DNA of 64,000 bases from Nitrospirota bacterium. GTDB taxonomy: Bacteria > JACPQY01. The stretch lies in contig JACPAV010000024.1 of NCBI GenBank assembly GCA_016180645.1, positions 1 through 64,000 on the forward strand, read 5' to 3'. The position numbers were made by a program, and so were the translations under genes. The notes below the pieces were generated by a model that made no database searches, was not told the DNA's origin, and saw only the letters and a list, made by a program, of their open reading frames with translations. Below, piece after piece: positions 16,795-58,127 of the stretch. Positions within the stretch are counted from its first letter, which is position 1; the number at the start of each line of letters is the position of its first letter.

Positions 16795-16797
16795 GGG

Positions 16798-17694: not shown

Positions 17695-17702
17695 GGCTCC
17701 TC

Positions 17703-18293: not shown

Positions 18294-18299
18294 GGAGGG

Positions 18300-24638: not shown

Positions 24639-24647
24639 GGTATCGCC

Positions 24648-24892: not shown

Positions 24893-24896
<4 letters not shown>
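24648..24896 (+). CDS. Small hypothetical protein between nxrA and nxrB
   Basis: GAGGT RBS; ATGA overlap with nxrB. Confidence 0.75.
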
Positions 24897-26169
<1,273 letters not shown>

Positions 26170-26173
<4 letters not shown>

Positions 26174-31087: not shown

Positions 31088-32323
31088 CTACGCCTTGACC
31101 GCCGGTTTGGTCCCGATTAAGTAGGAGACGGATCCGCCGAGAACATCGACGCGACGGACGCGCGGGAAGCCGGCTTCGCGCATGAGGGCCACGATTTCGT
31201 TCAGCGTGGGCGTCTGCCCACCTTGATTGAAGAAGAGATCCATTGCGGCCTGAACGGCCGATCCGCGGGGAGTGAGCTTGTCGTCATTCAGAATCGGTTC
31301 CCACACCACCGCGCGTCCACCCGGCTTCAAGCTTTGGAAAGCCTTGCCCAGAAACTTCTTGCCAAATTCAGAGAGCGGTTTGAGCGAAAGTTTCCGCGTG
31401 AGAAAAACCATGTCGTAGCCCTCGCCGGTATCGTCCCAGGTGTCTTTCCACGGGTCCCCGGAGTGGCGGTGGAAGCTATCGACTCTCGACGTGGCGATGC
31501 CATGGTCTTTCATGATGTCCGGGATCTCATCGACGAGGTGCGGCAGACAGGCGAACACCACCTGCGCCTTTGGATTCGCTTCCAGGAGTGCGGCCGCAAA
31601 GCTGACTCCGGCGGAACCGACGATGAATCGGCGCACACCCGAGACATCCACTCTCTCCATGAACGCCCTGTGCGCGGATCGGAGCTGAGCATTGACGACG
31701 TGTATGTAACCCCGGCTCGTGGGATTCTTCCGGTCGAAAATGTCCATTGCCTTCGGGCTCTTCCCGGTCCTGAGAGTGTCCGCAAGGTCCATGAAGGAAG
31801 TCCAGGACTGGCTGAGAAGCGCGAGGACGGGAGCCAAGCTGTACGGCGAATGTCCAACCAGAAACGTGCGGGAGAATTCACTCAAGTCGTAGGTGCCTTT
31901 CCCATCCCTTTGGAGATATCCCATGGCGGTCAGGGCATTGAGAAACGGTTCGAGGGCTCGACGATTCAGTTTGAACTTCCGTGCCAGAGCCTCCACCGAC
32001 CCGCCTTCCGCCGGAAATCGCTCGAAAATCTTTGACCTGAAAGCCGTGATCAGGAGAACGGTGGATTGGACTCCGCCGATTTGTTGCCCGAAGCGACGGA
32101 GGGCGCGCATGTGGGGCATGTACGTGAACAGATCATCCGCCTGCATCGAGGCGAGCAGGCCCACGCTGCGCAACGCCTTTCTACCGGGATCGGGTAGGGG
32201 AAAACGGGCGATCTGCTCCGCTAGTCCCGCAATCTGGCCGGCCACGGTTTGTGAGCCACCATTCGTAAACGGCGGTTTGATTTTTCGGATTCGATCGAGG
32301 ACGTCGGCTGCTGGATGGGTCAT
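31088..32323 (-). CDS. O-methyltransferase (methyltransf_2)-like protein with dimerisation wHTH
   Basis: FLNALTAMGYL...Y.LSEFSRTFL; YDMVFL; SLKPGGR; motif I is atypical. Confidence 0.75.
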   Translation of the reverse strand: MTHPAADVLDRIRKIKPPFTNGGSQTVAGQIAGLAEQIARFPLPDPGRKALRSVGLLASMQADDLFTYMPHMRALRRFGQQIGGVQSTVLLITAFRSKIFERFPAEGGSVEALARKFKLNRRALEPFLNALTAMGYLQRDGKGTYDLSEFSRTFLVGHSPYSLAPVLALLSQSWTSFMDLADTLRTGKSPKAMDIFDRKNPTSRGYIHVVNAQLRSAHRAFMERVDVSGVRRFIVGSAGVSFAAALLEANPKAQVVFACLPHLVDEIPDIMKDHGIATSRVDSFHRHSGDPWKDTWDDTGEGYDMVFLTRKLSLKPLSEFGKKFLGKAFQSLKPGGRAVVWEPILNDDKLTPRGSAVQAAMDLFFNQGGQTPTLNEIVALMREAGFPRVRRVDVLGGSVSYLIGTKPAVKA

Positions 32324-32453
32324 GGGTGATTCCTCCCTTTGGCCGCTACCATAGCGAAGACGGGCATTGGCGACAAGCCGAATGCGCGGAGAGGGCAGGC
32401 CATCGGGTTCGCGTATCGCTCAAGGGTGACCTACGATGTCCGCAAAGATCCGC

Positions 32454-33230
32454 CTACAACCAGGAGATCTCCGGCTCCTTCCGGTCGGACGGCTGATCGT
32501 AAGCCGTTCCCTGCCAAGGATATCCGAGCGTGGACACCGAAGCGATCGTCCACCCGCGCGGCACGCGCAGCTTCTTCATCATATTGGGAGAATACTTGAT
32601 GAACTTGGCGAATCCAATCCAGCAGCTCCCGAGGCCCATGGCATGGGCGGCTAGGGCGAGGTTCTGTGTGGCGGCGGAACAGTCCTCCAGCCAAGTCTGG
32701 GCGCGTTTATTTCCCAGAATGAGGATGAGGACCGGCGCCTTGTGATACGTGTCGGCCGATTTCGATTCGCAGATTGAGCGCATCCCTTGGAGGATTCTTG
32801 GGTCCATCGTCTTGAAGAGTCCGGGATCGAAGATCCTGAAGAGAAGCTTGAGAAATCGCCACCTAAACTCTTTTCGCGTGAATGTTTTCAGGCAGAGGTC
32901 CATGCCCTTGAGGGTAACGGCCCGGATCTTGTCGATCATCTCCGTATCGCGGACGACGACAAACTTCCACGGTTGGGCGTTCATGCCGGACGGCGCCCAG
33001 TGGGCGAGATCGATGATCTTGCGGATAGTTTCTTCGGGAACGGGCGTTCTTTCGTAGAGGCGAACGCTCCGCCGGCTTCGGATGAGGCGCCCGATTTCCT
33101 CGACGGGGTAGGGGTGGAGTACTGCGGCGTCACCCTGAGCGGAGCGAAGGGTCTGTATGGGTGCGGTGTCGAGATTCTTCGCTTCGCTCAGAATGACCCC
33201 CGACGGTGAGACGACGCCCCTTTTCGTCAC
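32454..33230 (-). CDS. Nitroreductase-family flavoprotein
   Basis: RRSVRLY, APSGMNAQPW, AMGLGSCWIG; GTGA-coupled to the ferredoxin. Confidence 0.9.
   Translation of the reverse strand: MTKRGVVSPSGVILSEAKNLDTAPIQTLRSAQGDAAVLHPYPVEEIGRLIRSRRSVRLYERTPVPEETIRKIIDLAHWAPSGMNAQPWKFVVVRDTEMIDKIRAVTLKGMDLCLKTFTRKEFRWRFLKLLFRIFDPGLFKTMDPRILQGMRSICESKSADTYHKAPVLILILGNKRAQTWLEDCSAATQNLALAAHAMGLGSCWIGFAKFIKYSPNMMKKLRVPRGWTIASVSTLGYPWQGTAYDQPSDRKEPEISWL
33129..33197. repeat. Inverted REP-like pair (GTCATTCTGAGCGAAGCGAAG family), in frame
   Basis: gtcaccctgagcggagcgaagggtct ... agattcttcgcttcgctcagaatgac. Confidence 0.75.
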
Positions 33231-33544
33231 GCTCTGTCGGAAACGAGTTTTCGTTTCGCCTGAGACAACCCAGTGTACGGGGGGTAATTGTTCAGAGGGG
33301 CATATCCGATCGGCGGCGCGCCGGTGATGATGCGGTTCTGACCCCTGACCTCGATGGCGCCGGGCGAGCAACTCACCTTGCAATTGCGGCAGCCAATGCA
33401 GATGTTCGGAAGCCGCGCGACTTTCCGGTCGACGATCTTGAGGACGCCCATGGGGCAGGTGCGAGTACAGTTGGCGCACAAGTCGCACTTCGAGTGGTCA
33501 ATGATTACGTCGGGACTCTCAATTTGGCCATCGAGGATCAGCAT
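33227..33544 (-). CDS. 2[4Fe-4S] ferredoxin
   Basis: CDLCANCTRTCP and CIGCRNCKVSC. Confidence 0.9.
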   Translation of the reverse strand: MLILDGQIESPDVIIDHSKCDLCANCTRTCPMGVLKIVDRKVARLPNICIGCRNCKVSCSPGAIEVRGQNRIITGAPPIGYAPLNNYPPYTGLSQAKRKLVSDRA

Positions 33545-33547
33545 GGG

Positions 33548-35115
33548 TCAGGCCAACCTGTGCACGTTTGGACCCGACGGGCTGAACGTGGATTTCAGGA
33601 ACTCGTCCTTTGGCTTCTCCGACGGGGTCTTCGGAATCTCGGATAGGATTTGGACGTAGGTCGGGATGAAGTTTGTCGGGAGGGAAGCCCTGCATCTCTC
33701 TCGAATTGCGGTGGGGAGGAGGGTGCGGCCATCATGAGTGGAAACGGCTGCCACGAGATCGACTTCGCCTGGTGCGCCGGAAGCCGCCGGAACGCCATAG
33801 ACGTAAACCTCCGAAACCTCATCCAGCTCTCCGATGACTTTCTCAACGAAATCGGTCGGCACGAAATCGCCCTGCCGCCTAAGGCTTCGGCCCTTCCGAT
33901 GATCGAAAAACATCCAGCCGTTCTCGTCCGCGTGCCCGATGTCGCCGCTTCTCAGCCATCCTCCGCGGGTCTTGTCCTTCGAGGCTTCAGGATTGCGCAG
34001 GTAGTCCACCTGCGTCGGCCCGAGCTTCATCCGCGACACGATTTCGCCCTGCACGCCGGCCGGCACGTCGCGATCGTTGTCATCTACAATCCGGAAATCG
34101 ATGATGCCGGGGATGCGTTTCTTTCCGAAGGTTCCGTGCGGTCCTTCTCCAATCGGCCGGAACGTGAATCCCCCTTCCACGCTTGCGTACCATTCCAGAA
34201 TGTTCAAGTTGAATCGTTGTTCGAAATCCTCCCAGGCGAGAAGGAGGTGATGCCGTAGCGCCGGGTGACATCCCAGATGCGTTTCTTCGTGAATCTGCGG
34301 CTGATCACGGCGGGGATGCCGAGTTCGAGGGCGGGGTAGACGGTTACGCCCTGCGAGTTACCGTGGGAGAGTGAAAGGCCGGTGTAGAGGATGTCCGATC
34401 GGCGATATCCGAAGAAATGGCCGAGCATGGACATGAAGAAAAAGCGGACATTCGGTTGCACGACCCCTTTCGGATTCCCGGTGGTGCCGGAGGTGTAAAT
34501 GATCTGGAAGGGTGCCCACATATCTTTGGCGCGATCCTGGGGATCGAGACCCTTGGCGCTGTTCAGGATCGGTAGAACGGGTGGGAACCCCGTGGAGCCG
34601 GGCGGCCGTTCCGATTCGATGACGAAGGTATGCTTGATGGCCGGAACTTTGGGAAGAACTTCCTTGGCTTCCGAATCAAGGTTGTCGGCGAAGATGAGCA
34701 GTTTCGACTGGCTGTGATCGAGGATGTAGGTGAGCAGGTCGCCTCGATTTCGTGGGTCGATCGGGACGGCAACCGTGCCCGTGAGGGACGCGGCGGCGAA
34801 GGCGTACAGCATCTCCGGGTAGTTTTGTGAAAAGACGGCGAAGCGGTCGCCTGGCTTGAGACCGCGGGCGAGGAGTTCATGCGCCAAGGCGTGAGACCGC
34901 TGGTTCAGCTGACGCCGAGTGATGCGTTCTTCCGGGTGGTCCCCGTTTTCGAAGATGTACGCGATCGCATCGGGGGACTTGCGCGCTTCCATCTCGATCC
35001 GGTGGCCGAGGATCGCCGGGTTTAGAGGGGAGAGGGCCGCGCGGACACGTCCCGTCAGCATCCGCCGGACGACGGTGAGGGTGGCGAGGGTGTACACGTT
35101 TCCGAGGCGTGTCAC
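33548..35115 (-). pseudogene. CaiC-like acyl-CoA ligase, frameshifted with probable internal deletion near 34237
   Basis: YTSGTTGNPKG in one frame; WEDFEQRFNLNILEWYASVEGG...RSGD...PKTPSEK in another. Confidence 0.85.
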
Positions 35116-36326
35116 ACGCTGAGTATGTGCACGGCCATCGCGGCGGCTTCGTTCCCGAGCGCGCCTCCGCCGTTCTGGGTGAGGCCGACATTGGCGCCCG
35201 CGACCTGCCGATCGCCGGCCTCGCCTCTGAGTTGCCACACGACCTCCGAGATCTGGGCGATGCCCGTGGCGCCGACCGGATGGCCTTTGGAGCAGAGTCC
35301 TCCGCTTGTGTTCACCGGAATTCGCCCTCCGAGCGTTGTGGCTCCTTCATCCACGAGCCGGCCTCCTTCACCTTCAGCACATAGCCCGAGTTCTTCGTAG
35401 GCGAGAAGCTCGGCGGTGGAAGTGGCATCGTGAACCTCGGCGACGCTGATCTCCTTGGGGCCCAGGCCGGCGATTTCGTAAGCCTTCCGCGCGGCCCGTT
35501 CGACGATGCCCGGCTCTCCGAACGATCGATCTTTCCCCGAAACGAGCACCGAAGCACGAACGTGGATGGGCTTCGTGGTGAATCGCCTGGCCGTGGCTTC
35601 ATCGCAGACGATCGCGGCGGCGGCGCCGTCGCCGATGGGCGACGTCATCATCCGCGTGAGCGGCTCGACGACGGGAGGAGAGCCCATGACTTCATCGACA
35701 GTCACGCGCTCCCGGTACTGGGCGTGTGGGTTGAGGCTTCCGTGGTAATGGTTCTTCACCGCGATCTTCGCAAAGTGTTCTTTCTTTGTGCCGAATCGAT
35801 CCATGTGCATCCGGGCGACCATCGCGTAGAAGTCCATGAACAGGCTCCGCTGTGATCCCGCCTCACCGGGCGCGGGTTTGTCGGACGAGGCCTTCAGGGC
35901 TTCGGCGATTTGCGCCATCATTTCGACATCCACCGCGCTGCCCAGAGCGCGAAAGGATTTCTTCTTGTCCTCATCATAAAGCTTCTCCACCCCGAGGGCG
36001 AGGGCGACATCGATCATCCCCGAAGCCACGGCCATCCAGCCGAGGTGGAACGCCGTCGAAGAGCTGGCGCATGCGTTTTCGGCGTTGACGATGGGGATCG
36101 CCTCGATGCCGAGGGGTCTGAGGAGTACTTGGCCACGTATGCATTCTTGTCCGGACATGAGGCCGGCCATCGCGTTGCCGACGTAGGCGGCTTGGAGTGC
36201 GCCCTTGTCCATTCCGGCATTCTTGAGCGCACTCTCCACGGCCTCGCGGGCGAGGTCTTTCAGAGAACGGTCGGGAAATTTCCCGAAGTGAGTCATGCCG
36301 ACTCCGACGACCATCACTTTTCTCAT
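35112..36326 (-). CDS. SCP2/SCPx-type thiolase
   Basis: NACASS, EVHDA, SKGHPVGATG. Confidence 0.93.
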   Translation of the reverse strand: MRKVMVVGVGMTHFGKFPDRSLKDLAREAVESALKNAGMDKGALQAAYVGNAMAGLMSGQECIRGQVLLRPLGIEAIPIVNAENACASSSTAFHLGWMAVASGMIDVALALGVEKLYDEDKKKSFRALGSAVDVEMMAQIAEALKASSDKPAPGEAGSQRSLFMDFYAMVARMHMDRFGTKKEHFAKIAVKNHYHGSLNPHAQYRERVTVDEVMGSPPVVEPLTRMMTSPIGDGAAAAIVCDEATARRFTTKPIHVRASVLVSGKDRSFGEPGIVERAARKAYEIAGLGPKEISVAEVHDATSTAELLAYEELGLCAEGEGGRLVDEGATTLGGRIPVNTSGGLCSKGHPVGATGIAQISEVVWQLRGEAGDRQVAGANVGLTQNGGGALGNEAAAMAVHILSV

Positions 36327-37564
36327 GAATCCTCCCACGATTCGGCAATTCTCATTCGCTGGATTTGGTTGGTGCCTTCATAAATCTGAGTGAGCTTTAC
36401 GTCACGGAACGCCTTCTCGACTCCTGCCGCCGCTGTGACGCCGCTCTCCCCAAGGAGATCGATGACACGAGAACAGACCTCCATGGAGACGTCGCTGGCA
36501 AAGCATTTCGACATGGCCGACAAGGCCGGATCGGGCGGGAAAGTTGAGGCGGCCCTCCAGACGAGAGTCCGGGCGGCCTCGATCTTCATGGCGAGATCGG
36601 CCAGTTCGTACTTCAAACTGCGATCGGCCATGCCTCCCGACGTTCGCGCGATCGCCATGGCCTTCTCGAAGGCGAATCGCGCCGACCCGAGCGCAATTGC
36701 GCCCACGGCGGGGCGTGAGAGGTCCAAAGTCTGGTGATTCAGGCGCCATCCCTCGCCTTCGGCGCCTACGCGGTGATCCTCCGGAATGTGCACATCTTCC
36801 AAGATCAGCTCGGCCGCCGGACTGGCGCGCTGCCCCATCTTGTGTTCGACGCGGCCGATGGAAAACCCCTTGGAGTCGGTGGGGACGACGAATGCCGTCC
36901 ACGAGGAGATTCCCTTCTCTTTGTCGAGGGCGGCGAAGACCGTGACGTGCGTCGCCAGGTTCCCCCCCGAGATGAAACATTTGCATCCGTTCAAAACGTA
37001 CCCACCGTTCTCGCGACGGGCAAACGTCGACAGTTTCGCCTTGCGGCTGCCTTCGGTGTCCTCAACATCGGAGCCCGCGGACGGCTCGGTGATGGCGAAG
37101 GCGAAGAGGGCAGGCCGTTCCGTGCGCGACCGCTCCGCCACGAGCCGAAGGAATTTCTTGAGGATGCGTGGATCGAACGAGATGAACAACGGGAGCAGCC
37201 CGAGCGTATGTGCGCCGAACAGGACGCAGACGCCGGGACAGACCGCCGCGATCTCTTCCGTGAAAACGGCGGCCTTGAGGAGTCCGAAACGGAAGAAGTC
37301 GATCATGCTCAAATCGCCTCCGTACCGTTTCGGTACCAGCATCGTCAGCCAACCGGCGTGGCCGGCTTTTCGGATCAGTTCGAGTTGCAACGCGTCGGTG
37401 GGATGACGGTCCAGCTCTGGAACATGCGGCGCGATCTCCTTGTCCAGCCAGATTCGCAATTCGGTCCGGAACCGCTCCAATGCCTTCGGTGTTTTCAGGG
37501 GGTCGCGCAGCCCGGGTTTCGAGAAGAGTTTCTTCCCAAGCCAGTTGTAGAAGTCAGTTGCCAT
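36323..37564 (-). CDS. Acyl-CoA dehydrogenase (catalytic-type)
   Basis: AITEPSAGSD, NGCKCFIS, KMGQR, IYEGTNQIQR. Confidence 0.93.
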   Translation of the reverse strand: MATDFYNWLGKKLFSKPGLRDPLKTPKALERFRTELRIWLDKEIAPHVPELDRHPTDALQLELIRKAGHAGWLTMLVPKRYGGDLSMIDFFRFGLLKAAVFTEEIAAVCPGVCVLFGAHTLGLLPLFISFDPRILKKFLRLVAERSRTERPALFAFAITEPSAGSDVEDTEGSRKAKLSTFARRENGGYVLNGCKCFISGGNLATHVTVFAALDKEKGISSWTAFVVPTDSKGFSIGRVEHKMGQRASPAAELILEDVHIPEDHRVGAEGEGWRLNHQTLDLSRPAVGAIALGSARFAFEKAMAIARTSGGMADRSLKYELADLAMKIEAARTLVWRAASTFPPDPALSAMSKCFASDVSMEVCSRVIDLLGESGVTAAAGVEKAFRDVKLTQIYEGTNQIQRMRIAESWEDS

Positions 37565-38591
37565 GGTGGTCTTCGTCCAGCCGGGCCCCGGCCCGATCGA
37601 CCAGATTGCGGTTGGATCGGCCGATGATGCAGAGCGTCTTGGCGTCCCGCAGTCGTTTTTCCAGCCCATAGTCCTCCATGTAGCCGTATCCGCCGAGGAC
37701 TTGAATCGCCTCCGAGCAAATCTGTTCAGCCGATTGGGTGGCGAACGCCTTGGCGAGTCCGGCTTGGACCGGATCCCTCGATTCGATGGCCTTGTCGACC
37801 AAAGCGCGTGTGGCTGCATTCAGCATGGTCATCCGACCGAGCATCGTCCGAATGACCGGATGATCGATGATCAGACCGCATCCCTGGTATCGGCTCCGGG
37901 CGTAGTCCGTTGCTTCACGGATGGCCGATTCCGCATTGGAGGCGGCGACGGCGGCCAGCCAAGGGAGGGAAATCGCCTCGGTGGAGCGGGCAAGGGCGCG
38001 CGCCGACGAAATGTCGAGCGTCAGGATCGAACTCTTCTCCTGCCGGTCGTTCTCGGCCCCGAAATCTCCAAAGCGGCAGGCACGCAGCCCCAGCAATCCA
38101 TCCGTCGAATCCTGCGTGAGGAGGGGGAGCAGGCTGAAGGATCCGGTTGTTCCGCTCTCGGAGTAGTCCACCGCCTGGATCGACGCCGTGGAGCCGAAGG
38201 AGCGGTGCGGGACTCCCGGCGCCAATCCCGCGGAACTGCATGCTGTGAGCTCCGTCCTGTTAATGGATTGGCCCGATAGCCAGAAGGGGAGGCAGCCGGA
38301 GTAATGCGACCAGAGTGCCGCGGCGACCCCCGGACACGTTGCCGCGATTTCCCGAAGAATCGCGGCGATCAATCCCGGGCTCGAGGGATCCGCAGCGTCA
38401 AACGGAGGATCGAGGAGCCCGTTGGCGCCAAGTTGGGAGGATATCTCGCCCCACGCCCGCGCGGATTGATCCGAGTCGAATGCTCGCAATTGTGGAAGGA
38501 TCACGGACTGGGCCAGCCGGCGCGCTGTGGCCCCGACTTGGACGAGTAGATCAGCGGAATCGGGGAGTCGGGAAATCGGCGTGGCGCTCAC
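37554..38591 (-). CDS. Degenerate acyl-CoA dehydrogenase (probable partner subunit)
   Basis: YARSRYQ, AKAFAT, IQVLGGYGY, RDAK present; TEP and YEG motifs absent. Confidence 0.8.
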   Translation of the reverse strand: MSATPISRLPDSADLLVQVGATARRLAQSVILPQLRAFDSDQSARAWGEISSQLGANGLLDPPFDAADPSSPGLIAAILREIAATCPGVAAALWSHYSGCLPFWLSGQSINRTELTACSSAGLAPGVPHRSFGSTASIQAVDYSESGTTGSFSLLPLLTQDSTDGLLGLRACRFGDFGAENDRQEKSSILTLDISSARALARSTEAISLPWLAAVAASNAESAIREATDYARSRYQGCGLIIDHPVIRTMLGRMTMLNAATRALVDKAIESRDPVQAGLAKAFATQSAEQICSEAIQVLGGYGYMEDYGLEKRLRDAKTLCIIGRSNRNLVDRAGARLDEDHHGN

Positions 38592-42041: not shown

Positions 42042-42042
42042 G

Positions 42043-46425: not shown

Positions 46426-46427
46426 GG

Positions 46428-51153: not shown

Positions 51154-52169
51154 GCCTCGATCTGCGCCGGATTCTGATCGAAGGGCTTGAGCATATCGTG
51201 CCATCGCCGGGAGATGAGGATGTCCATCAGATCGGACTTTTGGCCGGCCCGCGTTTTATCCCATTCGGCATTCAGGATCCGAAGCGCCTCGTCCGCGGCA
51301 GGACCGAACAGCGAACGGAGATATTCCGCCGGCACTCTGGGCTTGGCTTCAAGCGGATTCCCCGTGGAGTCGAACGGAGGCGGCAGCACGGGCGGCACGT
51401 AGTAGATGTTCGGCTGGGTCCCGTACTCGGGATGCAGAGGGATTGCCACGCGCCACTTGCTCACGAGTTGGAACACCTGGCCCGCCTCGTCATCGAGGTA
51501 CCCGAAATGGCGCGCGCGTCCGGGGCACATGCGGACGCAACCCGGCGCGACGCCTTTCTCCACCCGCGGAAAGCACAGAATGCACTTCTGGCCGATGAAC
51601 CGCTTGGGGTTGAAGTAAATCCGTTTGTACGGGCAGGCCTCCATGCAGAAGCGGTAGCCGTGGCACTTGTCCTCGTCGATCAGGACCGTGCCGTTCTCCT
51701 CGTTCTTGACGATGGCCTTGCGGGGGCAGGCTTCAAGACAGGCCGGCCGCGTGCAGTGGTTGCACAGACGCGGGAGGTAAAAGTAGTAGGAGTTCGGATA
51801 TTCGCCCGCGCCCTGATCTTCTTCCCAGTTGGGCCCCCACGTGGGCTCGGGCGTGGGCTTCAGATGGACGCTCGTGCCCTTGCCCTCGAAGAACACTTCC
51901 TCATAGTTGAAGTTCCACGCGATGCCGAACTCTTCGTTGGTGGGAAGTCGTCCGGTCCGGGCTTTTCCATCGGCATCGAATCCGCCGCCCATTTTTTCCC
52001 AATCGCGGGGAGTGCCGCGACCGGGCACGGTGGTGACGATGTTCCACCACATGTATTCCATGGCGGGATCGTTGGTCCAGAGTTGTTTGCAGCCGACGGT
52101 GCAGGTCTGGCATCCGATACACTTGTTTAGGTCGATCACCATCGCCAATTGGCGCTTCGATGGGCTCAC
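51150..52169 (-). CDS. Fe-S beta subunit 2 (EbdB-like)
   Basis: DLNKCIGCQTC, WGPNWEEDQG, CNHCTRPAC. Confidence 0.95.
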   Translation of the reverse strand: MSPSKRQLAMVIDLNKCIGCQTCTVGCKQLWTNDPAMEYMWWNIVTTVPGRGTPRDWEKMGGGFDADGKARTGRLPTNEEFGIAWNFNYEEVFFEGKGTSVHLKPTPEPTWGPNWEEDQGAGEYPNSYYFYLPRLCNHCTRPACLEACPRKAIVKNEENGTVLIDEDKCHGYRFCMEACPYKRIYFNPKRFIGQKCILCFPRVEKGVAPGCVRMCPGRARHFGYLDDEAGQVFQLVSKWRVAIPLHPEYGTQPNIYYVPPVLPPPFDSTGNPLEAKPRVPAEYLRSLFGPAADEALRILNAEWDKTRAGQKSDLMDILISRRWHDMLKPFDQNPAQIEA

Positions 52170-52837
52170 GCCTTCACCTCCAGGAGGAGCCAACCTGGAA
52201 CGGTGGACTTGAGGCCGGCGCGCTCCTTGTTCGAGCCTTCCCATACGGCGAAGGCAATCGGGACGGTGCCCTGAGCGGGCAGCGCGGCGACCTCCTTCTC
52301 AGCGTCCGGCGCCGCCAGGGTGCGGCTCAGAACCACCTGCCAGCGGCCGTTCTTCCATTCGCCTCGGGCGGCAATCGTGCTGTCGGGCAGTCGCTTGGAT
52401 GTTCCGAATCCGCGCGCGCGCACGTCCTTGGCTTTATCGCCAAAGTCCGCCCTCCAGAGCCAGGCATTCACGGGAATATCGTCCGCTCCCATGGAGATGG
52501 GATCGTTTTCGAAGACGCTGGGGAGGCCTTCCTGACCGGGGAACATCACGGCCGCCGCGTCCGGGAAAGGATCGGAATCGGAGGGCGCCGCGTCCTTCTT
52601 GCTGTCGTTCCACTCGAGGCGGACATAAATCGATTTGCCGTCGTGCGCGATCTTCACGGATATTTCGTGGATGGCTCCGTGTTTCTTGGGCAGGTTCCGC
52701 ACGTACTCCGAGGGCTGGTTCTCCAAGGGAGAAGGATCGAGTTTGAGTCGCGATGCGGGCACGTGGCCCCACAGGCCGGAATCCGGCGCCAGAGCCTGTT
52801 GCGGATCGAGTTCCAATTTCTTTGCCGTGATCTTCAT
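52166..52837 (-). CDS. Heme b gamma subunit (EbdC-like)
   Basis: DAAAVMFP...ISMG (Met)...AFAVWEG...RAGLK (Lys). Confidence 0.9.
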   Translation of the reverse strand: MKITAKKLELDPQQALAPDSGLWGHVPASRLKLDPSPLENQPSEYVRNLPKKHGAIHEISVKIAHDGKSIYVRLEWNDSKKDAAPSDSDPFPDAAAVMFPGQEGLPSVFENDPISMGADDIPVNAWLWRADFGDKAKDVRARGFGTSKRLPDSTIAARGEWKNGRWQVVLSRTLAAPDAEKEVAALPAQGTVPIAFAVWEGSNKERAGLKSTVPGWLLLEVKA

Positions 52838-53361
52838 GGTGTCTTCACCTCCTCGGTACAAACGGGAAGGGCTTGACCTGCCGCAAGGACAGGAATGGTT
52901 GAGGAGAAGGAAAATCGCCTCCTCCTGCGATACATCCAGCGCATGCCTTCCACCGAGGCGTGCAAGAGCACCCACGGAAGGACGGCCCAGGTCGACCAGA
53001 CGTGAATGCTTCGACTGATGGGGAGCCATCCCGCGGCCGCTTCGGGCTCGATCCAGAGCAGCACCCCCGTTGCGAAGAGCAGGATACTCAGCGCCAGCGC
53101 CAGGATCGAATTGAGCTTCTTCCAGCCCACCAGGGCCGTGAGCCTCCTGATTTTCAGGATGGCCCAGCCGCGGAGGGCGTATACGGCGATGAGCGTGATT
53201 CCGAAGGGTACGGCCGACCACAGGTGGACATCCCGGACAACCTCGAATCGACCGCCCAACAAGATTTCCCTCAGACTGGAGAAGGGAGCGGGCAGGAGGA
53301 GGATGCCGGTGATTCCAAGCGTGAGGAACGCCGCGGCGTTCGCCACGTGGGTGTTCGTCAT
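52834..53361 (-). CDS. Four-TM membrane protein with spaced His residues (cytochrome b-like?)
   Basis: THVAN, DVHLW, SIHVW, LLH; ATGA-coupled to gamma. Confidence 0.6.
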   Translation of the reverse strand: MTNTHVANAAAFLTLGITGILLLPAPFSSLREILLGGRFEVVRDVHLWSAVPFGITLIAVYALRGWAILKIRRLTALVGWKKLNSILALALSILLFATGVLLWIEPEAAAGWLPISRSIHVWSTWAVLPWVLLHASVEGMRWMYRRRRRFSFSSTIPVLAAGQALPVCTEEVKTP

Positions 53362-53381
53362 CGAAAGGATCCGGCTCCCCC

Positions 53382-56300
53382 TCAAACGACGCTCGCTTTG
53401 CGGATGTCCACGAAAACATGCCGGTCCGATTGGACGGGCTGCCAATTCCACACCCAGAACTTGAGGTGACCGTAGCCTCCCGCCAGGTGAAGCCACTTCA
53501 CCATTCCCGGAATCGCGGTGTCGTAGCTTTTCCAATCCTTGTATTGGTACGGATCCCATGCGTGATAGACGATCACCTGCCCGCGCCGGGGCAGGGCGCT
53601 GACCTTGGCCTGGATGGTGAAGTGGTCGATGTCGTTCTGGACGTGCACGTATTCGCCGTCCTCGATGTCCTTCTCTTTCGCATCCATCGCGTTGATGAAC
53701 ATGAACGGCTCGCCCCGGTGCAGGGCGAGGGCCAGTTCGTTGGCCACATTCGAGGCGTGGATACTCCAGCGAAGGTGACCGCTGGTCATGATGAACGGAT
53801 AGTCCCCTCCGGCTTTGGGCGGGACCTTGTGGGTCGGGAGTTCTTCACCGCCCTCGATGAACCACGGATGGTCGATGTAAAACTGTGCCCTCCGGGCATA
53901 CGTCGGGTAGGGGATCTTCTTCTCCGTGTGCCACGAGAACGGGTTCACGGTCTCATCCGGCTTGACGTCCGTCGCCACGTTCTGCCCGTGGGGGGTGTGG
54001 CCCAAGCCCGTGTATTTCACGAAGCCGTCTTTCCGCAATTTGGCGAGGTCCGTGTCCTTGGCGACCATCCCTCCTTCGGTGAAGATTTCGAGGGCATCCC
54101 CGAAAATCTTCTCGCTCTCCCCGTCGGTATAGTACCCGTTTGCCGTGAATCGCTTGTACACGCTTTCAAACTTGCGAGTGGGCCCGTAGAACTCCCGGAA
54201 CTGCTTTGAGATTCGCTCGTGGAACAGCCGGTTGCCGATCTTGCCGAGGATACCGGGCGGGATGAAGGAGTCGATGACCTTGTCGACGTCCACCATCTGC
54301 CGGATGCGATACTCCTCCTTGCCGCGCTCTCTCGCCCGATCGGAGACCTTCTTCGCGAGCAACGCGAAGATGTCCCACTCGTTTTTCGACTCGTGCACCG
54401 GATCGATCGCCTTGTCCGCAAACGCCCAGAACCGGATGTGAGGACTGGTGATCGAGTGCATCTGGGTTTTCTCGTAGAAGAACGCCGCCGGAAGGACGAT
54501 GTCGGAATACATCGCGCTCGTGGACATGCGGACGTCGACGGCGACAACCATCTTGAGTTTGGGCCAGAGGTTTTCGAGCAGCCGTTTCGGGCCGCCGCGC
54601 GTGCGGCGAAGAGTGTTGGATCCGCATAGGATGTAGACCTGCGGAGGGATATCCTGCCGCGGGCGGACGTAGTCCTCCCACCAACCTTTGTCCACGGCTT
54701 CCTGGAGGTACTCGTCGAAGGTGCGCTTCATCGAAGTATCGCCCCATTCCTTGGTGTTCCACACTTCGCGGTAGCCGGCGTGGTAGTACCAGAAGAAGGC
54801 GGGCGGGACCTGACCGACCAGCTTGGCCATGATGTTTTCGATATCGATGTGGGCCATTTCGTCGGTCATCGACGGATCTTTCCTTTTCAGCAGCGAGACC
54901 AGTCGCTTCACTTCCGTCAACGTTTCCTTGAATGCGCCCTTGCCGCCCTCGCGTATCGGCATGCTGTAGATAGAGGCGTCGGCCAGCACGGTCCAGCCGC
55001 GCACGCCGGTCCCTTTGCGCCCCCAGTTTCCGGTAAGCCCGAGGCAGAGACACATGGCGCGCTCGATGAGATCGCCATGGTAGATTTTCGGGGGGCACCA
55101 GCCGACGAGGATGTTTGTCCTTTTCGCGGCCATCTTGCGTGCGAGATCGCGAATCACATCCGGATGAATTCCCGTGATCGAGTGGACCTTGTCGAGGTCG
55201 TATTCCGCATTGAGCTTCTGTTTCAGGATTTCGAATACGGGCGTGACGGCGACCTCCGTCCCGTCGGCCAGCTTCACGAGATGCTCGCCTTCGAGTTCCG
55301 GCACCACCTTGCCGAGGGACAGCTTCTTCCGGGGCGCGGCGGACAGGGATTGGGTTGCTCCGTCCCAGAAGTAGAGCTGTTCGTCGCTCCCGCCTTTCTT
55401 GAGATCGCTTTGACGCAGGAAACGTCGGGTGTCTTTTCGCACGAGGAACGCGAGGTCCGTCTGCTCGCGAACGAAATCCGCTTTGTAGAGTTTCTCTTCG
55501 ATGAGCACTCGCGCCACGCCCAAGGCCAGCGCGGCATCGGTCCCGATCTTGACGGGAACGTAGTAGTCCGCATGGCCGGCGGAAGGACTGAAGTCCGGAG
55601 CGATGGTCCAGACTTCCCCGCCGTTGTAACGGGACTCCGACACGAAATGGTAGCCCGGGATCCGCGTGTAGACGGGATTCATGAGCCAGATGAGCGTGAG
55701 TTCGGCTTTGAACCAGTCGTCCTGTGAACTGACGCCGTGGAACTTCCCGAAAGTCATGTACTGGCCGATGTTGTAGTCGTTGATGATTCCGTTCGCGTCG
55801 AGCATCGTTCCGCCGAGAATCGCGGCGAAGCGGAGCGGGGGATACACGCCGTGCGGGAAGGCGCCGCCCTGGCCCGGCTGCTCGTCCACCACGACGGATT
55901 CCGGCCCAACGTTCTCGGCCGCGTCGATGATGGCGTCGGCCACCTCGGTGAGCGCCTCGTCCCAACTGATGCGCTTCCACTGGCCGCTCCCGCGGGGACC
56001 CACGCGTTTCATGGGAAACTTCAACCGCTCGCCTCCGTAGGTGACGCGGGAGTACATGCAGCCTTTCTGGCAGCCGCGTGGGTTCCAGTCGGGCGTGGTG
56101 GGGTCCACCACCGGGTACCGGCCGGTCTGCTCTTCGCGCCAGAACACGCCGTTCTTGAGGTAGCCTACCCAGGAGCAGTTTCCGGGGTAGCAATCCTGGG
56201 GGTGCGTGACGAAAACGGTCTTGTCCCACGACCATTTCTCGCGCATGGCGTCTTCCCAGTTGCCCGTATGCTTGAGCGCCGGAGGGAGCGCGGCCTTGCG

Positions 56301-56390
56301 TTCGCAACTGGTGACCGTGAACTGGGAGAGGGACAGGGTGGCGGCGGCCACGCCGGTGGTCTGGAGAAATTCGCGGCGGTCGAGTTTCAA
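53382..56390 (-). CDS. Type II DMSOR-family Mo enzyme alpha subunit 1 (S25dA-like)
   Basis: DRREFL Tat; THPQDCYPGNC...PRGCQKG; GIIND; HLRWSIH. Confidence 0.93.
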   Translation of the reverse strand: MKLDRREFLQTTGVAAATLSLSQFTVTSCERKAALPPALKHTGNWEDAMREKWSWDKTVFVTHPQDCYPGNCSWVGYLKNGVFWREEQTGRYPVVDPTTPDWNPRGCQKGCMYSRVTYGGERLKFPMKRVGPRGSGQWKRISWDEALTEVADAIIDAAENVGPESVVVDEQPGQGGAFPHGVYPPLRFAAILGGTMLDANGIINDYNIGQYMTFGKFHGVSSQDDWFKAELTLIWLMNPVYTRIPGYHFVSESRYNGGEVWTIAPDFSPSAGHADYYVPVKIGTDAALALGVARVLIEEKLYKADFVREQTDLAFLVRKDTRRFLRQSDLKKGGSDEQLYFWDGATQSLSAAPRKKLSLGKVVPELEGEHLVKLADGTEVAVTPVFEILKQKLNAEYDLDKVHSITGIHPDVIRDLARKMAAKRTNILVGWCPPKIYHGDLIERAMCLCLGLTGNWGRKGTGVRGWTVLADASIYSMPIREGGKGAFKETLTEVKRLVSLLKRKDPSMTDEMAHIDIENIMAKLVGQVPPAFFWYYHAGYREVWNTKEWGDTSMKRTFDEYLQEAVDKGWWEDYVRPRQDIPPQVYILCGSNTLRRTRGGPKRLLENLWPKLKMVVAVDVRMSTSAMYSDIVLPAAFFYEKTQMHSITSPHIRFWAFADKAIDPVHESKNEWDIFALLAKKVSDRARERGKEEYRIRQMVDVDKVIDSFIPPGILGKIGNRLFHERISKQFREFYGPTRKFESVYKRFTANGYYTDGESEKIFGDALEIFTEGGMVAKDTDLAKLRKDGFVKYTGLGHTPHGQNVATDVKPDETVNPFSWHTEKKIPYPTYARRAQFYIDHPWFIEGGEELPTHKVPPKAGGDYPFIMTSGHLRWSIHASNVANELALALHRGEPFMFINAMDAKEKDIEDGEYVHVQNDIDHFTIQAKVSALPRRGQVIVYHAWDPYQYKDWKSYDTAIPGMVKWLHLAGGYGHLKFWVWNWQPVQSDRHVFVDIRKASVV

Positions 56391-57433
56391 GAGGGCACGC
56401 CTCCCTTCGCCGTCACGGGGTCGTTCGTGAACGGCTTGAAGAAGTCATCGGGCCATCGCCAGCCGATGAGGATGTCCATCAACTCCGATTTCTCACCCTT
56501 GCGGCGGCGGTCCATCTCGGCCTGGACGATCGCCAGCGTCTCGGAGACATTCGGCCCGAAGAGCGATTGTAGGTACTCGATCGGGATGCGCGCTTGGGTG
56601 GTATCGAAATTTCCATTCTGCCCGACGCGAGCCGGACCGATCGGCGGTACATAGTAAATATTGGGTTCAGTCCCGTATTCCGGGTGCAGTGGGATCGCCA
56701 CTTTCCACTCGTTGACCAGCTTGTGAATGGGGCCGGCCGTGTCGTCGAGGTAGCCCACGAATCGAACCCGTCCGGGACACTGTCTCGCGCAGGCGTTCGC
56801 CACTCCTTTTTCGAGGCGCGGGAAGCAAAAAATGCACTTGTTCGCCGTGAGCGTCACGTAGTTGAAATAGATCTTCTTGTACGGGCACGCTTCCATGCAG
56901 TAGCGGTAGCCTCGGCATTTCCCCTGATCGACGAGCACGATTCCGTCTTCCTTGCGCTTGTAGATCGCCTTGATGGGGCAGGCCTCGGCGCAGGCGGGGT
57001 AGGTGCAGTGGTTGCAGAGCCGCGGGAGGTAGAAAAAATAGGAGTTGGGAAACTCACCCGCGCCTTGATCTTCATCCCAGTTGAACATCCATTTCGGCTT
57101 TTTCGGCGGGTGGAGGTACTCACCCGCGCCCTTGCCCTGATAGAAGACTTTGTCGTAGTCGTATTTGGGCGCCTCGCCGAAATCCTCGATGGATGGGAGT
57201 TTTCCCGATCGCGCTTTTCCGTCTGCGTCGAACCCACCGCCCATGGTTTCCCAATCCTTCGGCGTGCCGCGGCCCGGCTGTGTGTTTACGCTGTTCCAGA
57301 ACATATGGCGCTGGCCTTCTTCGTCGGTCCACAGCGTCTTGCAGGCGACGGTACAGGTCTGGCATCCGATGCATTTGTTCAGGTCGATCACCATGGCGAC
57401 CTGTCTTTGCGGCTTCCACGTTTCTTTCGGCAA
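56387..57433 (-). CDS. Fe-S beta subunit 1 (EbdB-like)
   Basis: DLNKCIGCQTC, NWDEDQG, CNHCTYPAC. Confidence 0.95.
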   Translation of the reverse strand: MPKETWKPQRQVAMVIDLNKCIGCQTCTVACKTLWTDEEGQRHMFWNSVNTQPGRGTPKDWETMGGGFDADGKARSGKLPSIEDFGEAPKYDYDKVFYQGKGAGEYLHPPKKPKWMFNWDEDQGAGEFPNSYFFYLPRLCNHCTYPACAEACPIKAIYKRKEDGIVLVDQGKCRGYRYCMEACPYKKIYFNYVTLTANKCIFCFPRLEKGVANACARQCPGRVRFVGYLDDTAGPIHKLVNEWKVAIPLHPEYGTEPNIYYVPPIGPARVGQNGNFDTTQARIPIEYLQSLFGPNVSETLAIVQAEMDRRRKGEKSELMDILIGWRWPDDFFKPFTNDPVTAKGGVPS

Positions 57434-57458
57434 CGTTCCCCCCTTTAGGTGTTACGGC

Positions 57459-58085
57459 TCACGCGTGCGCTCCGTTCGTTTGAGCGACTCCGCCCACGGA
57501 GAATTCGACCAGTGACTGTATGGCTTGTTCCCGCGTGAGATCGGGATGGGTGAGATAGTAGTGGCCGGCCTGTTCGAGGAGTCCGGTCAGCGCGCGTGCA
57601 ATCAGGCCGTAGTGGAGCGCCGGCCGGAGAAGGCCTTCCCGAAGGCCGCGCTCGAACTGGCCGTAGGCGAGGCTTTCGAGCCGATCAAACATGAGATGAA
57701 TGACGCGGCCGAGTCCCACGCTTACGCTTCGCCCTTCGCGCGCGAAGAAAAGGGCGAGGTTCCGATTGCGGTCGATCGTGCTGAAATACGCCTCGATGGC
57801 CGAGCGGAAAACGCTACGCGGATCGGCGAAGGATTGGCTCTCCAAAACGGAGCTGATGTTCTGGAAAATCTCGTTTCCCACTTGGAGAGCGAATTGGCGG
57901 ACGATGTCTTCCTTGTTCTTGAAGTGCTCGTAGAACAGGCCCTTGGCGACCTGGGCCACCTGGGCGATGTCCTCGATTCGGGATGCGTCGAACCCCTTGT
58001 CCCCGAAGACTTCGCGCGCGGCGTCAAGGATCTTGCTGCGCGTCCTTGCCCGCATTTCCTTGTTCTGCTCTGCGTTTCTCCCCAT
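57459..58085 (-). CDS. TetR/AcrR-family regulator
   Basis: ILDAAREVFGDKGF...IAQVAQVAKGLFYEHFKNKE. Confidence 0.93.
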   Translation of the reverse strand: MGRNAEQNKEMRARTRSKILDAAREVFGDKGFDASRIEDIAQVAQVAKGLFYEHFKNKEDIVRQFALQVGNEIFQNISSVLESQSFADPRSVFRSAIEAYFSTIDRNRNLALFFAREGRSVSVGLGRVIHLMFDRLESLAYGQFERGLREGLLRPALHYGLIARALTGLLEQAGHYYLTHPDLTREQAIQSLVEFSVGGVAQTNGAHA

Positions 58086-58089
58086 GCGA

Positions 58090-58127
58090 ATTGACTGACC
58101 ATCGGTCAATGAGCAAGGGCGGTGCCA
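58090..58127 (-). promoter_or_regulatory. Sigma54 promoter followed by TetR-like operator
   Basis: TGGCACCGCCCTTGCT (58127-58112); imperfect palindrome ATTGACTGA-CCA-TCGGTCAAT (58090-58110). Confidence 0.75.

Follow-up and report, generated by a model that had tools for sequence, protein, structure and literature searches.

In a 64,000-nucleotide stretch of DNA (the window) we observed a run of 21 minus-strand genes, all in the same direction from 58085 to 31088 (~27 kb), which probably encodes an O2-independent route from the terminal isopropyl end of a lipid side chain (a tertiary C-H) to a 2-methyl-branched acyl-CoA and the start of beta-oxidation. This reading of the sequence, in which each step is inferred from homology and gene order, would make the operon a compact form of the pathway known from Sterolibacterium, in a distant lineage. 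Genes were called from a listing of open reading frames together with Pfam and NCBIfam profile searches, and the small membrane gene and the ferredoxin were found by hand reading of the sequence. The features, in operon order, are as follows.

58092..58112, minus: 21-nt near-palindrome ATTGACCGATGGTCAGTCAAT, an inverted repeat just upstream of the TetR start codon
57459..58085, minus: TetR-family regulator, FadR/FasR-like (Pfam TetR_N 59 bits)
56387..57433, minus: beta1, Fe-S subunit of a type II DMSO-reductase-family enzyme (TIGR03478 528 bits, cut-off 480.7; EbdB model 479 bits)
53382..56390, minus: alpha1, Tat-exported Mo-bisPGD catalytic subunit (RR motif; EbdA model 848 bits)
52834..53361, minus: 174-aa membrane protein, candidate di-haem cytochrome b anchor (Pfam DUF4405 31.9 bits, cut-off 26.7)
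52166..52837, minus: gamma, haem b subunit (Pfam EB_dh 119 bits; TIGR03477 155.8 bits, below its cut-off of 169.85)
51150..52244, minus: beta2, second Fe-S subunit (TIGR03478 508.6 bits; start perhaps GTG 52169)
50398..51153, minus: delta, NarJ/TorD-type maturation chaperone (TIGR03482 169.5 bits, cut-off 152.3)
47462..50401, minus: alpha2, Tat-exported catalytic subunit (RR motif; PDB EbdA 624 vs PcrA 603 bits)
46428..47462, minus: APH-family kinase, 344 aa (Pfam APH 103 bits)
46000..46425, minus: 141-aa five-helix protein (no Pfam or NCBIfam family)
44939..46033, minus: 25-phosphosteroid-lyase homologue, 364 aa, NCBIfam 'Rv3169 family' (NF053593 222.9 bits, cut-off 150)
42043..44949, minus: alpha3, Tat-exported catalytic subunit (RR motif; PDB EbdA 590 vs PcrA 463 bits)
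39159..42041, minus: alpha4, Tat-exported catalytic subunit (RR motif; PDB EbdA 616 vs PcrA 555 bits)
38588..39169, minus: SRPBCC/START-like lipid-binding protein (Pfam Polyketide_cyc 32.8 bits; start uncertain, 39148-39256)
37554..38591, minus: ACAD-like protein with only a C-terminal ACAD domain recognisable (Pfam Acyl-CoA_dh_1 only)
36323..37564, minus: full acyl-CoA dehydrogenase (Pfam N, M and C domains; start overlaps the preceding gene by 11 nt)
35112..36326, minus: SCP2-type thiolase (best PDB match SCP2-thiolase type-1 6hsj, 258 bits)
33548..35115, minus: AMP-forming acyl-CoA ligase (two frames in the window; 103 bases absent at 34235/34236)
33227..33544, minus: 2x[4Fe-4S] ferredoxin (translation; Pfam Fer4 families)
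32454..33230, minus: nitroreductase-family flavoprotein (Pfam Nitroreductase 115 bits; GTG 33230)
31088..32323, minus: class-I O-methyltransferase with dimerisation domain (Pfam Methyltransf_2 27.5 bits, Dimerisation)
31024..31036, minus: terminator-like hairpin 52 nt past the last gene (consensus scan)

Gene order and co-orientation were exactly those of the original prediction. Its description of the genes as mostly joined by overlapping start and stop codons agrees with 11 of the 20 junctions under first start choices and 14 with refined starts, while the start it gave to TetR (58109-58127) gives way to a most likely ATG at 58085. The widest intergenic gap is 130 nt, between nitroreductase and methyltransferase, and the hairpin is weak, since the terminator scan returned 4 sites where 1.7 were expected. 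The regulator, whose best NCBIfam matches are weak ones to FadR/FasR models, would act as a repressor controlling the unit from the palindrome before its own start codon. We regard this near-palindrome as a candidate TetR operator; it is the sole such site in the 4.7-Mb genome.

The window derives from an uncultured groundwater bacterium. All 21 genes, from TetR to methyltransferase, were found in the same order on one contig (C47) of genome G001, which is of a different genus and is the one other species of the phylum in the genome set compared, at 37-81% amino acid identity, and the ORFs flanking the operon on both sides had no orthologue at that locus. The block is thus not a chance arrangement, its order being kept while both flanks differ. 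The TetR start (MGRNAE) is common to both genomes, and 17 of the 21 palindrome letters are kept at the same position before the G001 TetR start. These observations bear on a quite unlikely explanation, in which two Mo-enzyme cassettes, a kinase-lyase module and a fatty-acid beta-oxidation cassette with different substrates are merely juxtaposed. Kinase-lyase pairs do occur mostly without Mo enzymes (an alpha lay within 5 kb of the kinase relative at 1 of 80 metagenome loci), and contig C60 carries a similar TetR-thiolase-ligase-ACAD cluster on its own. Against juxtaposition stand the order kept between two genera, the single regulator with its single candidate operator, and the overlapping junctions, which include those between proposed modules (the alpha2 stop is overlapped by the kinase start and the alpha3 start by the lyase end).

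Each of the four alphas has an RR Tat motif, and the FS0 His/Cys ligands and Mo-Asp column are conserved in all of them. Their best solved relative is EbdABC(D) of Aromatoleum aromaticum (PDB 2IVF), and the beta, gamma and delta subunits also match Ebd models, although EbDH differs in acting on a benzylic methylene within a pathway that has neither kinase nor lyase. Alpha1 is the most EbdA-like (2ivf_A 773 vs PcrA 454 bits); on the EbdA equivalog model the four scored 627-848 bits, far under the cut-off of 2000. Alpha3 and alpha4 are 50.5% identical, and beta2 is 63% identical to beta1. Because the alphas outnumber the beta and gamma subunits, the latter are presumably shared. The gamma gene starts at ATG 52837 with GGAGG upstream. 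The 174-aa membrane protein has hydrophobic segments and histidines at 4, 45, 119 and 133, with histidines at matching spots (read by eye) in its 37% identical G001 orthologue, and scored 25.5 bits to Ni_hydr_CYTB, below the cut-off of 30.1.

A very improbable reading would make the four alphas respiratory oxyanion reductases of the chlorate, perchlorate, selenate or nitrate type, with unrelated lipid genes. Both kinds of enzyme share the alpha-beta-gamma-delta subunit set, and alpha2 is nearly equidistant between EbdA (624 bits) and perchlorate reductase (603 bits). All four alphas nonetheless scored higher to EbdA (2ivf) than to perchlorate reductase (4ydd). A 38-row ML tree, in which S25dA, S26DH, EbdA, CmdA and AhyA have no rows and assignment to a steroid-type clade rests on proxies, placed the four alphas and environmental homologues in one clade (UFBoot/SH-aLRT 90/91), with ClrA, haloarchaeal NarG, a cld-linked reductase and the Nxr/Nar-like alpha of the window itself all outside it. 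Alpha2 grouped there with environmental homologues, away from ClrA and NarG; clustering with oxyanion reductases, which the original prediction had named as evidence against itself, was thus not seen for ClrA, NarG or the cld-linked enzyme. None of the 240 listed homologues of alpha2 and alpha3 bore an oxyanion-reductase name, whereas the JGI name 'steroid C-25 hydroxylase alpha subunit' was attached to 3 of the best 120 homologues of alpha3 and 1 of 120 of alpha2. The annotated genes include no chlorite dismutase, and a separate Nxr/Nar-like complex is present elsewhere in the window (21144-28337).

One of two genes previously taken as hypothetical is, by sequence and modelled structure, a homologue of 25-phosphosteroid lyase (25-PSL), and its presence in the operon strengthens the side-chain reading. 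The 364-aa protein matched PDB 9fzn_A (25-PSL) over its full length (E 2.7e-21, residues 14-358 vs 8-349). A Foldseek search with its structure model (pLDDT 80.5) returned 25-PSL entries in the five best rows (TM 0.76-0.82; 9g2i_A at E 1.7e-26, TM 0.81), and one matched entry contains phosphate and desmost-1,4-diene-3-one. Identity in the structural alignment is ~24%. The family-invariant residues are kept, and most of them, e.g. YPNLG and RDRSWG, are identical in 25-PSL. Counting from the APH kinase it is the second gene downstream, and it lies between genes for Tat-exported EbDH/S25DH-type alphas. The next structural neighbours, the AttH / kievitone hydratase group (2ich, 7a0t; TM 0.51-0.60), share the double beta-barrel fold but are remote (11-14% identity). 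Kievitone hydratase acts on the same type of carbon as proposed for the window lyase, converting a prenyl double bond to a tertiary alcohol and back; its group adds water using neither ATP nor phosphate as a leaving group, unlike the kinase-lyase pair here.

The kinase has catalytic HGD...N and DWE columns that are invariant across 14 relatives, and it is kept together with the alphas in the sister genome, as the original prediction of a 25-hydroxysteroid kinase would have it. The identity of that kinase fared less well. PDB scores were highest for ACAD-type kinases (3dxp 103 bits, ACAD11 8v3v 70 bits) and lower for 9fsg (63 bits), which may be a chain of 25-HSK; by these scores the kinase is closer to ACAD10/11-type kinases than to 9fsg. 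Kinase relatives also had an alpha nearby at just 1 of 80 metagenome loci. Relatives of kinase and lyase were adjacent at 18 of the 80, and at 12 of the 36 where each flank reached 1.5 kb or more. This fits the Rv3168-Rv3169 pair of Mycobacterium tuberculosis, in which an APH-like kinase gene stands next to an 'Rv3169 family' member; PDB 3ats/3att is a weak APH match of the window kinase. Mo hydroxylases are not known to occur beside that pair.

The 141-aa protein between kinase and lyase (AF2 model pLDDT 86.6, no Foldseek PDB match at E<=0.001) had 10 matches at E<=0.001 among 1.84 billion representatives, and a homologue directly follows an APH in three loci (L006, L009, L010); it is a recurrent follower of this kinase clade. 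At L009 and L006, whose type represents the kinase's closest metagenome relatives also carrying the small helical gene, the pair lies beside a crotonase or CoA-transferase and lacks the lyase. Such loci would suit an unlikely alternative in which the kinase belongs with the hydroxyacyl-CoA kinases of ACAD10/ACAD11 (LvaA-like) type and the two downstream ACADs eliminate phosphate; secondary or benzylic alcohols would then be all that the Mo enzymes provide, as is the case for EbDH, and the lyase homologue would do something else. It draws further on the ACAD-type kinase domains being the best solved relatives, on the two ACAD genes in the operon, and on a second APH directly adjoining an ACAD on contig C32 of the window's own genome. 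The logic is also shared: in ACAD10/ACAD11, as summarised in PMC11342911, an alcohol is phosphorylated and the phosphate eliminated to an alkene, but there the ACAD domain performs the elimination on a CoA ester, whereas here a 25-PSL-fold neighbour is at hand, two genes away, and the ACADs are five genes from the kinase. Moreover, an ACAD lay within 3 kb of the kinase relative at 1 of 80 loci, against 18 for the lyase, and the ACAD11 match does not exceed what would be expected inside one broad APH subfamily.

Under the side-chain reading, one of the four periplasmic, Tat-exported EbDH/S25DH-type alphas, sharing two betas, one haem-b gamma and one chaperone, would hydroxylate the tertiary carbon with water. 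The alcohol would reach the cytoplasmic face and be phosphorylated by the APH-family kinase, perhaps with the five-helix protein, and the lyase homologue would eliminate phosphate to give a subterminal alkene. A second Mo alpha could then hydroxylate the now-allylic methyl group and oxidise it further; the acid would be activated by the AMP-forming ligase and passed to a two-gene, probably heteromeric ACAD and the SCP2-type thiolase. Electrons would probably flow from the Mo enzymes through gamma and the small cytochrome-b-like membrane protein to the quinone pool.

An O2-independent cholesterol side-chain pathway alternating between periplasm and cytoplasm is described in PMC7411048, PMC8449060, PMC6016249 and PMC11061730. 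The set of the denitrifier Sterolibacterium denitrificans comprises S25DH1-4, 25-hydroxysteroid kinase, 25-phosphosteroid lyase (PDB 9fzn/9g2i/9g4c), S26DH1-3, C26-ALDH and C26-CoA ligase. The operon has the same enzyme families and inferred reaction order: Tat-exported type II DMSO-reductase alphas that outnumber beta and gamma (sharing is documented in PMC6016249), a dedicated chaperone, an APH-family kinase and a 25-PSL-fold lyase, followed by CoA ligation and beta-oxidation. It differs in that the S. denitrificans genes are scattered, with no lyase candidate near the kinase gene (PMC8449060), whereas the window has everything in one operon; in the distance of the lyase and a kinase orthology that is not demonstrable; and in features that the window has in addition, namely the cytochrome-b-like membrane protein, the small helical protein and a conserved ferredoxin-nitroreductase-methyltransferase tail. 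S. denitrificans is a betaproteobacterium, and the window's host belongs to another phylum.

The original prediction of this pathway logic within one operon of a different lineage thus stands at its core, with the lyase homologue and the alpha tree in its favour, but the pathway is not complete as had been suggested: no aldehyde dehydrogenase, enoyl-CoA hydratase or 3-hydroxyacyl-CoA dehydrogenase was found in the operon (Pfam, NCBIfam) or in the next 20 kb annotated. Possible substrates include a sterol side chain and other isoprenoid or iso-branched chains. As the steroid-core markers IpdE2, FadD3 and FadA5 had no match over cut-off in the genome, a steroid substrate is unsupported, and a sterol and a non-steroid isoprenoid are equally likely.

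The SRPBCC, ferredoxin, nitroreductase and methyltransferase genes are all conserved, and the proposed pathway gives them no role. The nitroreductase overlaps the ferredoxin by 4 nt and is 68% identical to its G001 orthologue, and the O-methyltransferase has a weak BchU/CrtF-type match (TIGR02716, 30 bits). PDB matches of the truncated ACAD-like protein span only residues about 156-330, and the thiolase was also matched by the NCBIfam 'lipid-transfer protein' models PRK06064 and PRK08256. The split CoA ligase is an assembly artefact, its two frames resulting from the 103 bases absent from the record. At this site contigs of runs X1 and X2 have 103 additional letters, contigs of runs X3 and X4 stop there with loose ends that read on, and the G001 orthologue is an intact 574-aa ORF.

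A run of 21 genes, all in one direction on the minus strand from 58085 to 31088, was obtained from the ORF listing combined with Pfam and NCBIfam searches, and the gene order was the one claimed in the original prediction. Two members, the 174-aa membrane gene and the ferredoxin gene, were identified by manual frame reading. With alpha1 to alpha4 as Mo catalytic subunits, beta1 and beta2 as Fe-S subunits, gamma as a haem b subunit and delta as a maturation chaperone, the operon comprises:

Genes 1-7, minus strand (first start at 58085): TetR, beta1, alpha1, 174-aa membrane protein, gamma (EB_dh), beta2, delta chaperone
Genes 8-11, minus strand (the last three at 46428-47462, 46000-46425 and 44939-46033): alpha2, APH-family kinase, 141-aa protein without a family, 364-aa 'Rv3169 family' protein
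Genes 12-16, minus strand: alpha3, alpha4, SRPBCC protein, ACAD with the C-terminal domain alone recognisable, full ACAD
Genes 17-21, minus strand (ligase at 33548-35115): thiolase, AMP-forming ligase, 2x[4Fe-4S] ferredoxin, nitroreductase-family protein, O-methyltransferase

Adjacent genes overlapped at 11 of the 20 junctions with the first start choices and at 14 of 20 with refined starts, and the widest gap was 130 nt. The most likely TetR start is the ATG at 58085, directly preceded by a 21-nt near-palindrome (58092-58112) that occurs once in the genome and has a counterpart at the corresponding position in the sister genome, G001, with 17 of the 21 letters identical. A scan for sigma-70-like promoters near TetR returned 0 sites, and terminator-like sites did not clearly outnumber those in shuffled sequence. 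The Rfam scan of the window gave 0 matches, and therefore no Moco riboswitch. Recent horizontal transfer was considered and left no sign, with the operon G+C (0.59-0.63) similar to that of the surroundings. A metallo-beta-lactamase-fold gene (58327-59046, plus strand) diverges from the TetR end and is not conserved beside the G001 operon.

The window is the opening 64 kb of contig C28 in the host genome (4.7 Mb, 97% complete). This genome and G001 are the only two of their phylum in the species set compared, with 39 further relatives linked at the domain level only. All 21 genes were found in identical order on a single G001 contig (C47) at 37-81% identity, while the ORFs flanking the operon on both sides in the window had no orthologue on that contig. 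Each of the four alphas paired with its own G001 orthologue in the maximum-likelihood (ML) tree (support 100/100), and the four-paralogue set therefore predates the split of the two genera. The operon is a real feature, and the first reading of it was largely correct. Just past the methyltransferase end in G001 lies a MoaA-like radical SAM gene for Mo cofactor synthesis (C47:19-1053), which has no counterpart at that place in the window.

Each of the four alphas carries an N-terminal twin-arginine motif and keeps the FS0 His and two Cys, together with an invariant Asp column common to ClrA and NarG, which we take to be the ligand of Mo. Against solved structures, ethylbenzene dehydrogenase (EbdA) ranked first and perchlorate reductase (PcrA) second for every alpha, with bit scores of 773/454 for alpha1, 624/603 for alpha2, 590/463 for alpha3 and 616/555 for alpha4; alpha2 is near-equidistant, with EbdA ahead by only 21 bits. 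No solved S25DH was among the PDB matches. Mutual identity of the four was 38.5-50.5%. The ML tree was built from a careful search and held 38 rows, with Alicycliphilus ClrA, Haloferax NarG and a chlorite-dismutase-linked enzyme from plasmid records as references (S25dA, S26DH, EbdA, CmdA and AhyA were not among the rows). In it the four alphas, a fifth alpha on contig C30, the G001 orthologues and 25 environmental homologues formed one clade, which excluded ClrA (UFBoot/SH-aLRT 90/91) as well as NarG and the chlorite-dismutase-linked enzyme (100/97, 100/99), to be read with caution given the long reference branches. Both this separation and the ranking of EbdA over PcrA agree with the original prediction, which had taken the alphas for hydroxylases and not oxyanion reductases. 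For alpha3 the best 120 homologues were 52-67% identical, and for alpha2 49-72%; their sources were metagenomes and MAGs under the labels Binatia, Deltaproteobacteria, Myxococcota, Chloroflexi and Dormibacteraeota. Three of the 120 for alpha3 and one of the 120 for alpha2 carried the JGI name 'steroid C-25 hydroxylase alpha subunit', and no oxyanion-reductase name appeared in either set.

The accessory subunits were likewise recognised, with beta1 at 528 bits and beta2 at 508.6 bits (family-model cut-off 480.7), delta at 169.5 bits (cut-off 152.3), and gamma at 155.8 bits, under the TIGR03477 cut-off of 169.85 and above that of Pfam EB_dh. The four alphas are served by two betas, one gamma and one chaperone, and such subunit sharing is documented for S25DH1-4 in the accessible text of PMC6016249. 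Between alpha1 and gamma, the 174-aa protein scored above the cut-off for DUF4405 and slightly under that for cytochrome b561; its sequence shows hydrophobic segments and four His, which by eye recur in the G001 orthologue. From these sequence features we read it as a putative cytochrome b anchor to the quinone pool. Assays of S25DH use cytochrome c or artificial acceptors, according to the available sections of PMC7411048, and no cytochrome-b-like subunit is mentioned for S25DH in the literature passages at hand.

The 364-aa product two genes downstream of the kinase is the candidate partner lyase of that enzyme. It belongs to the NCBIfam 'Rv3169 family' (NF053593; 222.9 bits, cut-off 150) and aligned end to end with the '25-phosphosteroid lyase' (25-PSL) entries 9fzn, 9g2i and 9g4c of the PDB (9fzn_A, E 2.7e-21, residues 14-358). 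An AF2 model built on 14 relatives (pLDDT 80.5, pTM 0.84) returned 25-PSL chains in all of the top five Foldseek rows (E 1.7e-26 to 3.5e-25, TM 0.76-0.82), one of these entries with phosphate and desmost-1,4-diene-3-one bound. After these came an AttH-like protein and kievitone hydratase, which belong to a fold whose enzymes act on prenyl ends. Columns invariant across the 14 relatives are kept in the operon protein, and most are also identical in the 25-PSL alignment. The 364-aa protein is a homologue of 25-PSL in sequence and in modelled fold, and phosphate elimination is its predicted activity. In the available text of PMC8449060 (2021) the lyase gene of S. denitrificans was unidentified, with no candidate near the kinase gene, and in that of PMC11061730 (2024) it was still 'putative'. 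The 25-PSL entries were released in January 2026, and our literature search found no paper on the gene.

The kinase is intact, with a Pfam APH match of 103 bits and the HGDxxxxN and DWE motifs invariant in alignment A1. Its best solved relatives were ACAD-type kinase domains (3dxp, 103 bits; 9o56, 85 bits; ACAD11, 70 bits), above the 63 bits to the 'APH-like protein' 9fsg, which may be 25-HSK as judged from neighbouring entry codes only. On these scores the kinase may or may not be an orthologue of the characterised 25-hydroxysteroid kinase (25-HSK, WP_154717265.1), and a rival role would be that of an ACAD10/ACAD11-type kinase acting on a hydroxyacyl-CoA, with the two operon ACADs removing the phosphate. 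In the ACAD10/ACAD11 arrangement, however, the kinase is fused to or directly beside an ACAD, whereas the operon ACADs lie five genes downstream. The host genome also encodes another APH kinase (C32:58107-60070), which shares 30% identity with that of the operon and adjoins an ACAD gene in the classical kinase-ACAD pairing.

A metagenome scan with the kinase alignment yielded 80 loci at 32-47% identity. Only one of these placed an ACAD 3 kb or less from the kinase, which again argues against the hydroxyacyl-CoA role. A lyase-family gene lay within 1.5 kb in 18 of the 80 loci (12 of the 36 that extend 1.5 kb or more to each side), and an alpha lay within 5 kb in a single locus (L008). The kinase-lyase pair is therefore a recurrent module, mostly without Mo enzymes, and its placement between alpha genes is peculiar to a few lineages. 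Matching 'longest contig' lengths across the APH, alpha2-like and alpha3-like match lists hint at shared contigs in other lineages, a hint given no weight here. Such wide pairing suggests that ATP-driven alcohol dehydration is more general than the pathway in which it was discovered. One locus (L042:3405-6446) carries a 1013-aa ORF that has an APH domain at its C-terminal end and is followed by a lyase-family gene, and may represent a fused form of the kinase.

The 141-aa protein between kinase and lyase was confidently modelled as a five-helix bundle (pLDDT 86.6), with no Pfam or NCBIfam family and 0 Foldseek rows against the PDB at E ≤ 0.001. Among 1.84 billion representatives it had 10 matches at E ≤ 0.001, two of them long proteins matched in many stretches. 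A small helical gene of this type directly followed the kinase in three of the 80 loci (L006, L009, L010). Two long loci with the kinase and the small protein lacked a lyase, and there a crotonase (L009) or a CoA-transferase (L006) was found beside them; the hydroxyacyl-CoA alternative is therefore kept alive next to the preferred kinase-lyase reading.

For the thiolase the top solved relative was an SCP2-type thiolase (258 bits), a type known to act on substrates with a 2-methyl branch, among them pristanoyl-CoA and bile-acid intermediates. Of the two ACAD genes, which overlap, one is degenerate, a pairing reminiscent of the heteromeric ACADs of steroid side-chain degradation. The ligase gene occupies two frames in the window, while the G001 ORF is intact at 574 aa, and 32 of its codons are missing in the window. 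Four runs of one groundwater-metagenome study (X1-X4) contain the ligase stretch, and all read C, not T, at 34203. Contigs from X1 and X2 carry an additional 103 letters at precisely 34235/34236, and those from X3 and X4 break off at this position, their loose ends continuing into the missing segment. The split thus comes from the record itself, and a pseudogene is ruled out by the 103 bases carried in the run contigs and by the intact G001 ORF. The ferredoxin, nitroreductase and methyltransferase that close the operon are all conserved in G001 (64%, 68% and 56% identity). Neither Pfam nor NCBIfam detected an aldehyde dehydrogenase (ALDH), enoyl-CoA hydratase or hydroxyacyl-CoA dehydrogenase in the operon, and the same three enzymes were absent from the annotated window flanks and the next 20 kb of the contig.

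We consider it probable that the operon belongs to the mechanism class predicted here, oxygen-independent side-chain oxidation. To our knowledge, Sterolibacterium denitrificans, with its scattered genes, is the only organism in which biochemical work has demonstrated that unactivated isoprenoid ends can be attacked without oxygen. The predicted working of the operon resembles that cascade and draws on the same enzyme families, but the genes are consolidated into one unit in a different host, the kinase may be of another type, and a membrane cytochrome-b-like protein, a small helical protein and a conserved redox/methyltransferase tail are present. There is also no ALDH in the operon, whereas in S. 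denitrificans the C26 acid is made by a separate ALDH, as stated in the available part of PMC7411048. No description of such operons outside Sterolibacterium was found in the collection of papers searched, and the 25-PSL structure paper, which lies outside it, may bear on the point.

As for the substrate, the chemistry would suit any chain with an isopropyl end. None of IpdE2, FadD3 and FadA5, marker equivalogs for HIP/ring C-D and side-chain steps of steroid degradation, exceeded its cut-off in the genome (best 103/450, 297/657 and 446.5/515 bits), a weak negative, as these equivalog models are assumed to be mainly actinobacterial and could miss distant equivalents. ACAD-like matches number more than 20 in the genome. 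Tentatively, and with considerable doubt, the operon may not be a sterol pathway at all, and may instead carry out a general quinone-coupled 'iso-terminal oxidation' that feeds anaerobic or microoxic subsurface bacteria on saturated isoprenoid lipids. On this doubtful proposal, substrates could include the phytanyl chains of archaeal lipids, pristane or phytane, and hopanoid or carotenoid ends; a membrane-anchored electron module would be common to four specialised Mo alphas; and the kinase, small helical protein and lyase would together form an ATP-driven dehydratase. If it were true, multi-alpha clusters of related type in MAGs of Binatia, Myxococcota and Chloroflexi would represent a widespread, undescribed sink for isoprenoid biomarkers.

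Two further clusters were noted in the genome. The fifth EbDH-like alpha, with its beta, adjoins a divergent TetR-headed cluster (C30:35135-54528; L086, L087) containing two CrtI/CrtO-like flavoproteins, a family III CoA-transferase, an SDR, an ACAD, a split B12 acyl-CoA mutase and a crotonase, which looks like another terpenoid-type catabolic unit. A paralogous cluster of TetR, SCP2-type thiolase (40%), AMP-ligase and ACAD genes without Mo enzymes was observed at C60:193-6455.

As a conserved single operon from a deep-branching groundwater lineage, the locus offers a ready gene set for heterologous reconstitution, with the membrane cytochrome b, the small helical partner and the ferredoxin-nitroreductase-methyltransferase tail as new candidate components. 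The alpha, kinase and 25-PSL homologue may serve as a marker set for anaerobic sterol/isoprenoid degraders in metagenomes. The operon is relevant to what becomes of the precursors of steranes, hopanes and phytane in anoxic sediments and aquifers, and also to biocatalysts for regioselective water-based hydroxylation, e.g. the synthesis of 25-hydroxyvitamin D3 (accessible text of PMC6016249).

Other genes in the window were also noted. A second, far more distant type II DMSO-reductase complex is encoded at 21144-28337 on the plus strand. Its alpha is Nxr/Nar-like and 1164 aa long, a beta and a chaperone accompany it, and its gamma combines an EB_dh domain with two fused cytochrome c domains. Further along the contig (C28:100760-106216) lie an alpha and a beta resembling these. 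Haem-copper oxidase genes (COX1, COX2, COX4_pro) were found at 15985-20081 on the minus strand, and the host is probably able to respire oxygen despite its oxygen-independent hydroxylases. A 1427-aa fusion (10923-15206, plus strand) joins two BcrAD/BadFG-type activase ATPase domains to DUF2229, as in activases of the acyl-CoA dehydratase type, and near it lie a TetR gene (9941-10681) and a GMC oxidoreductase gene (4727-6274).
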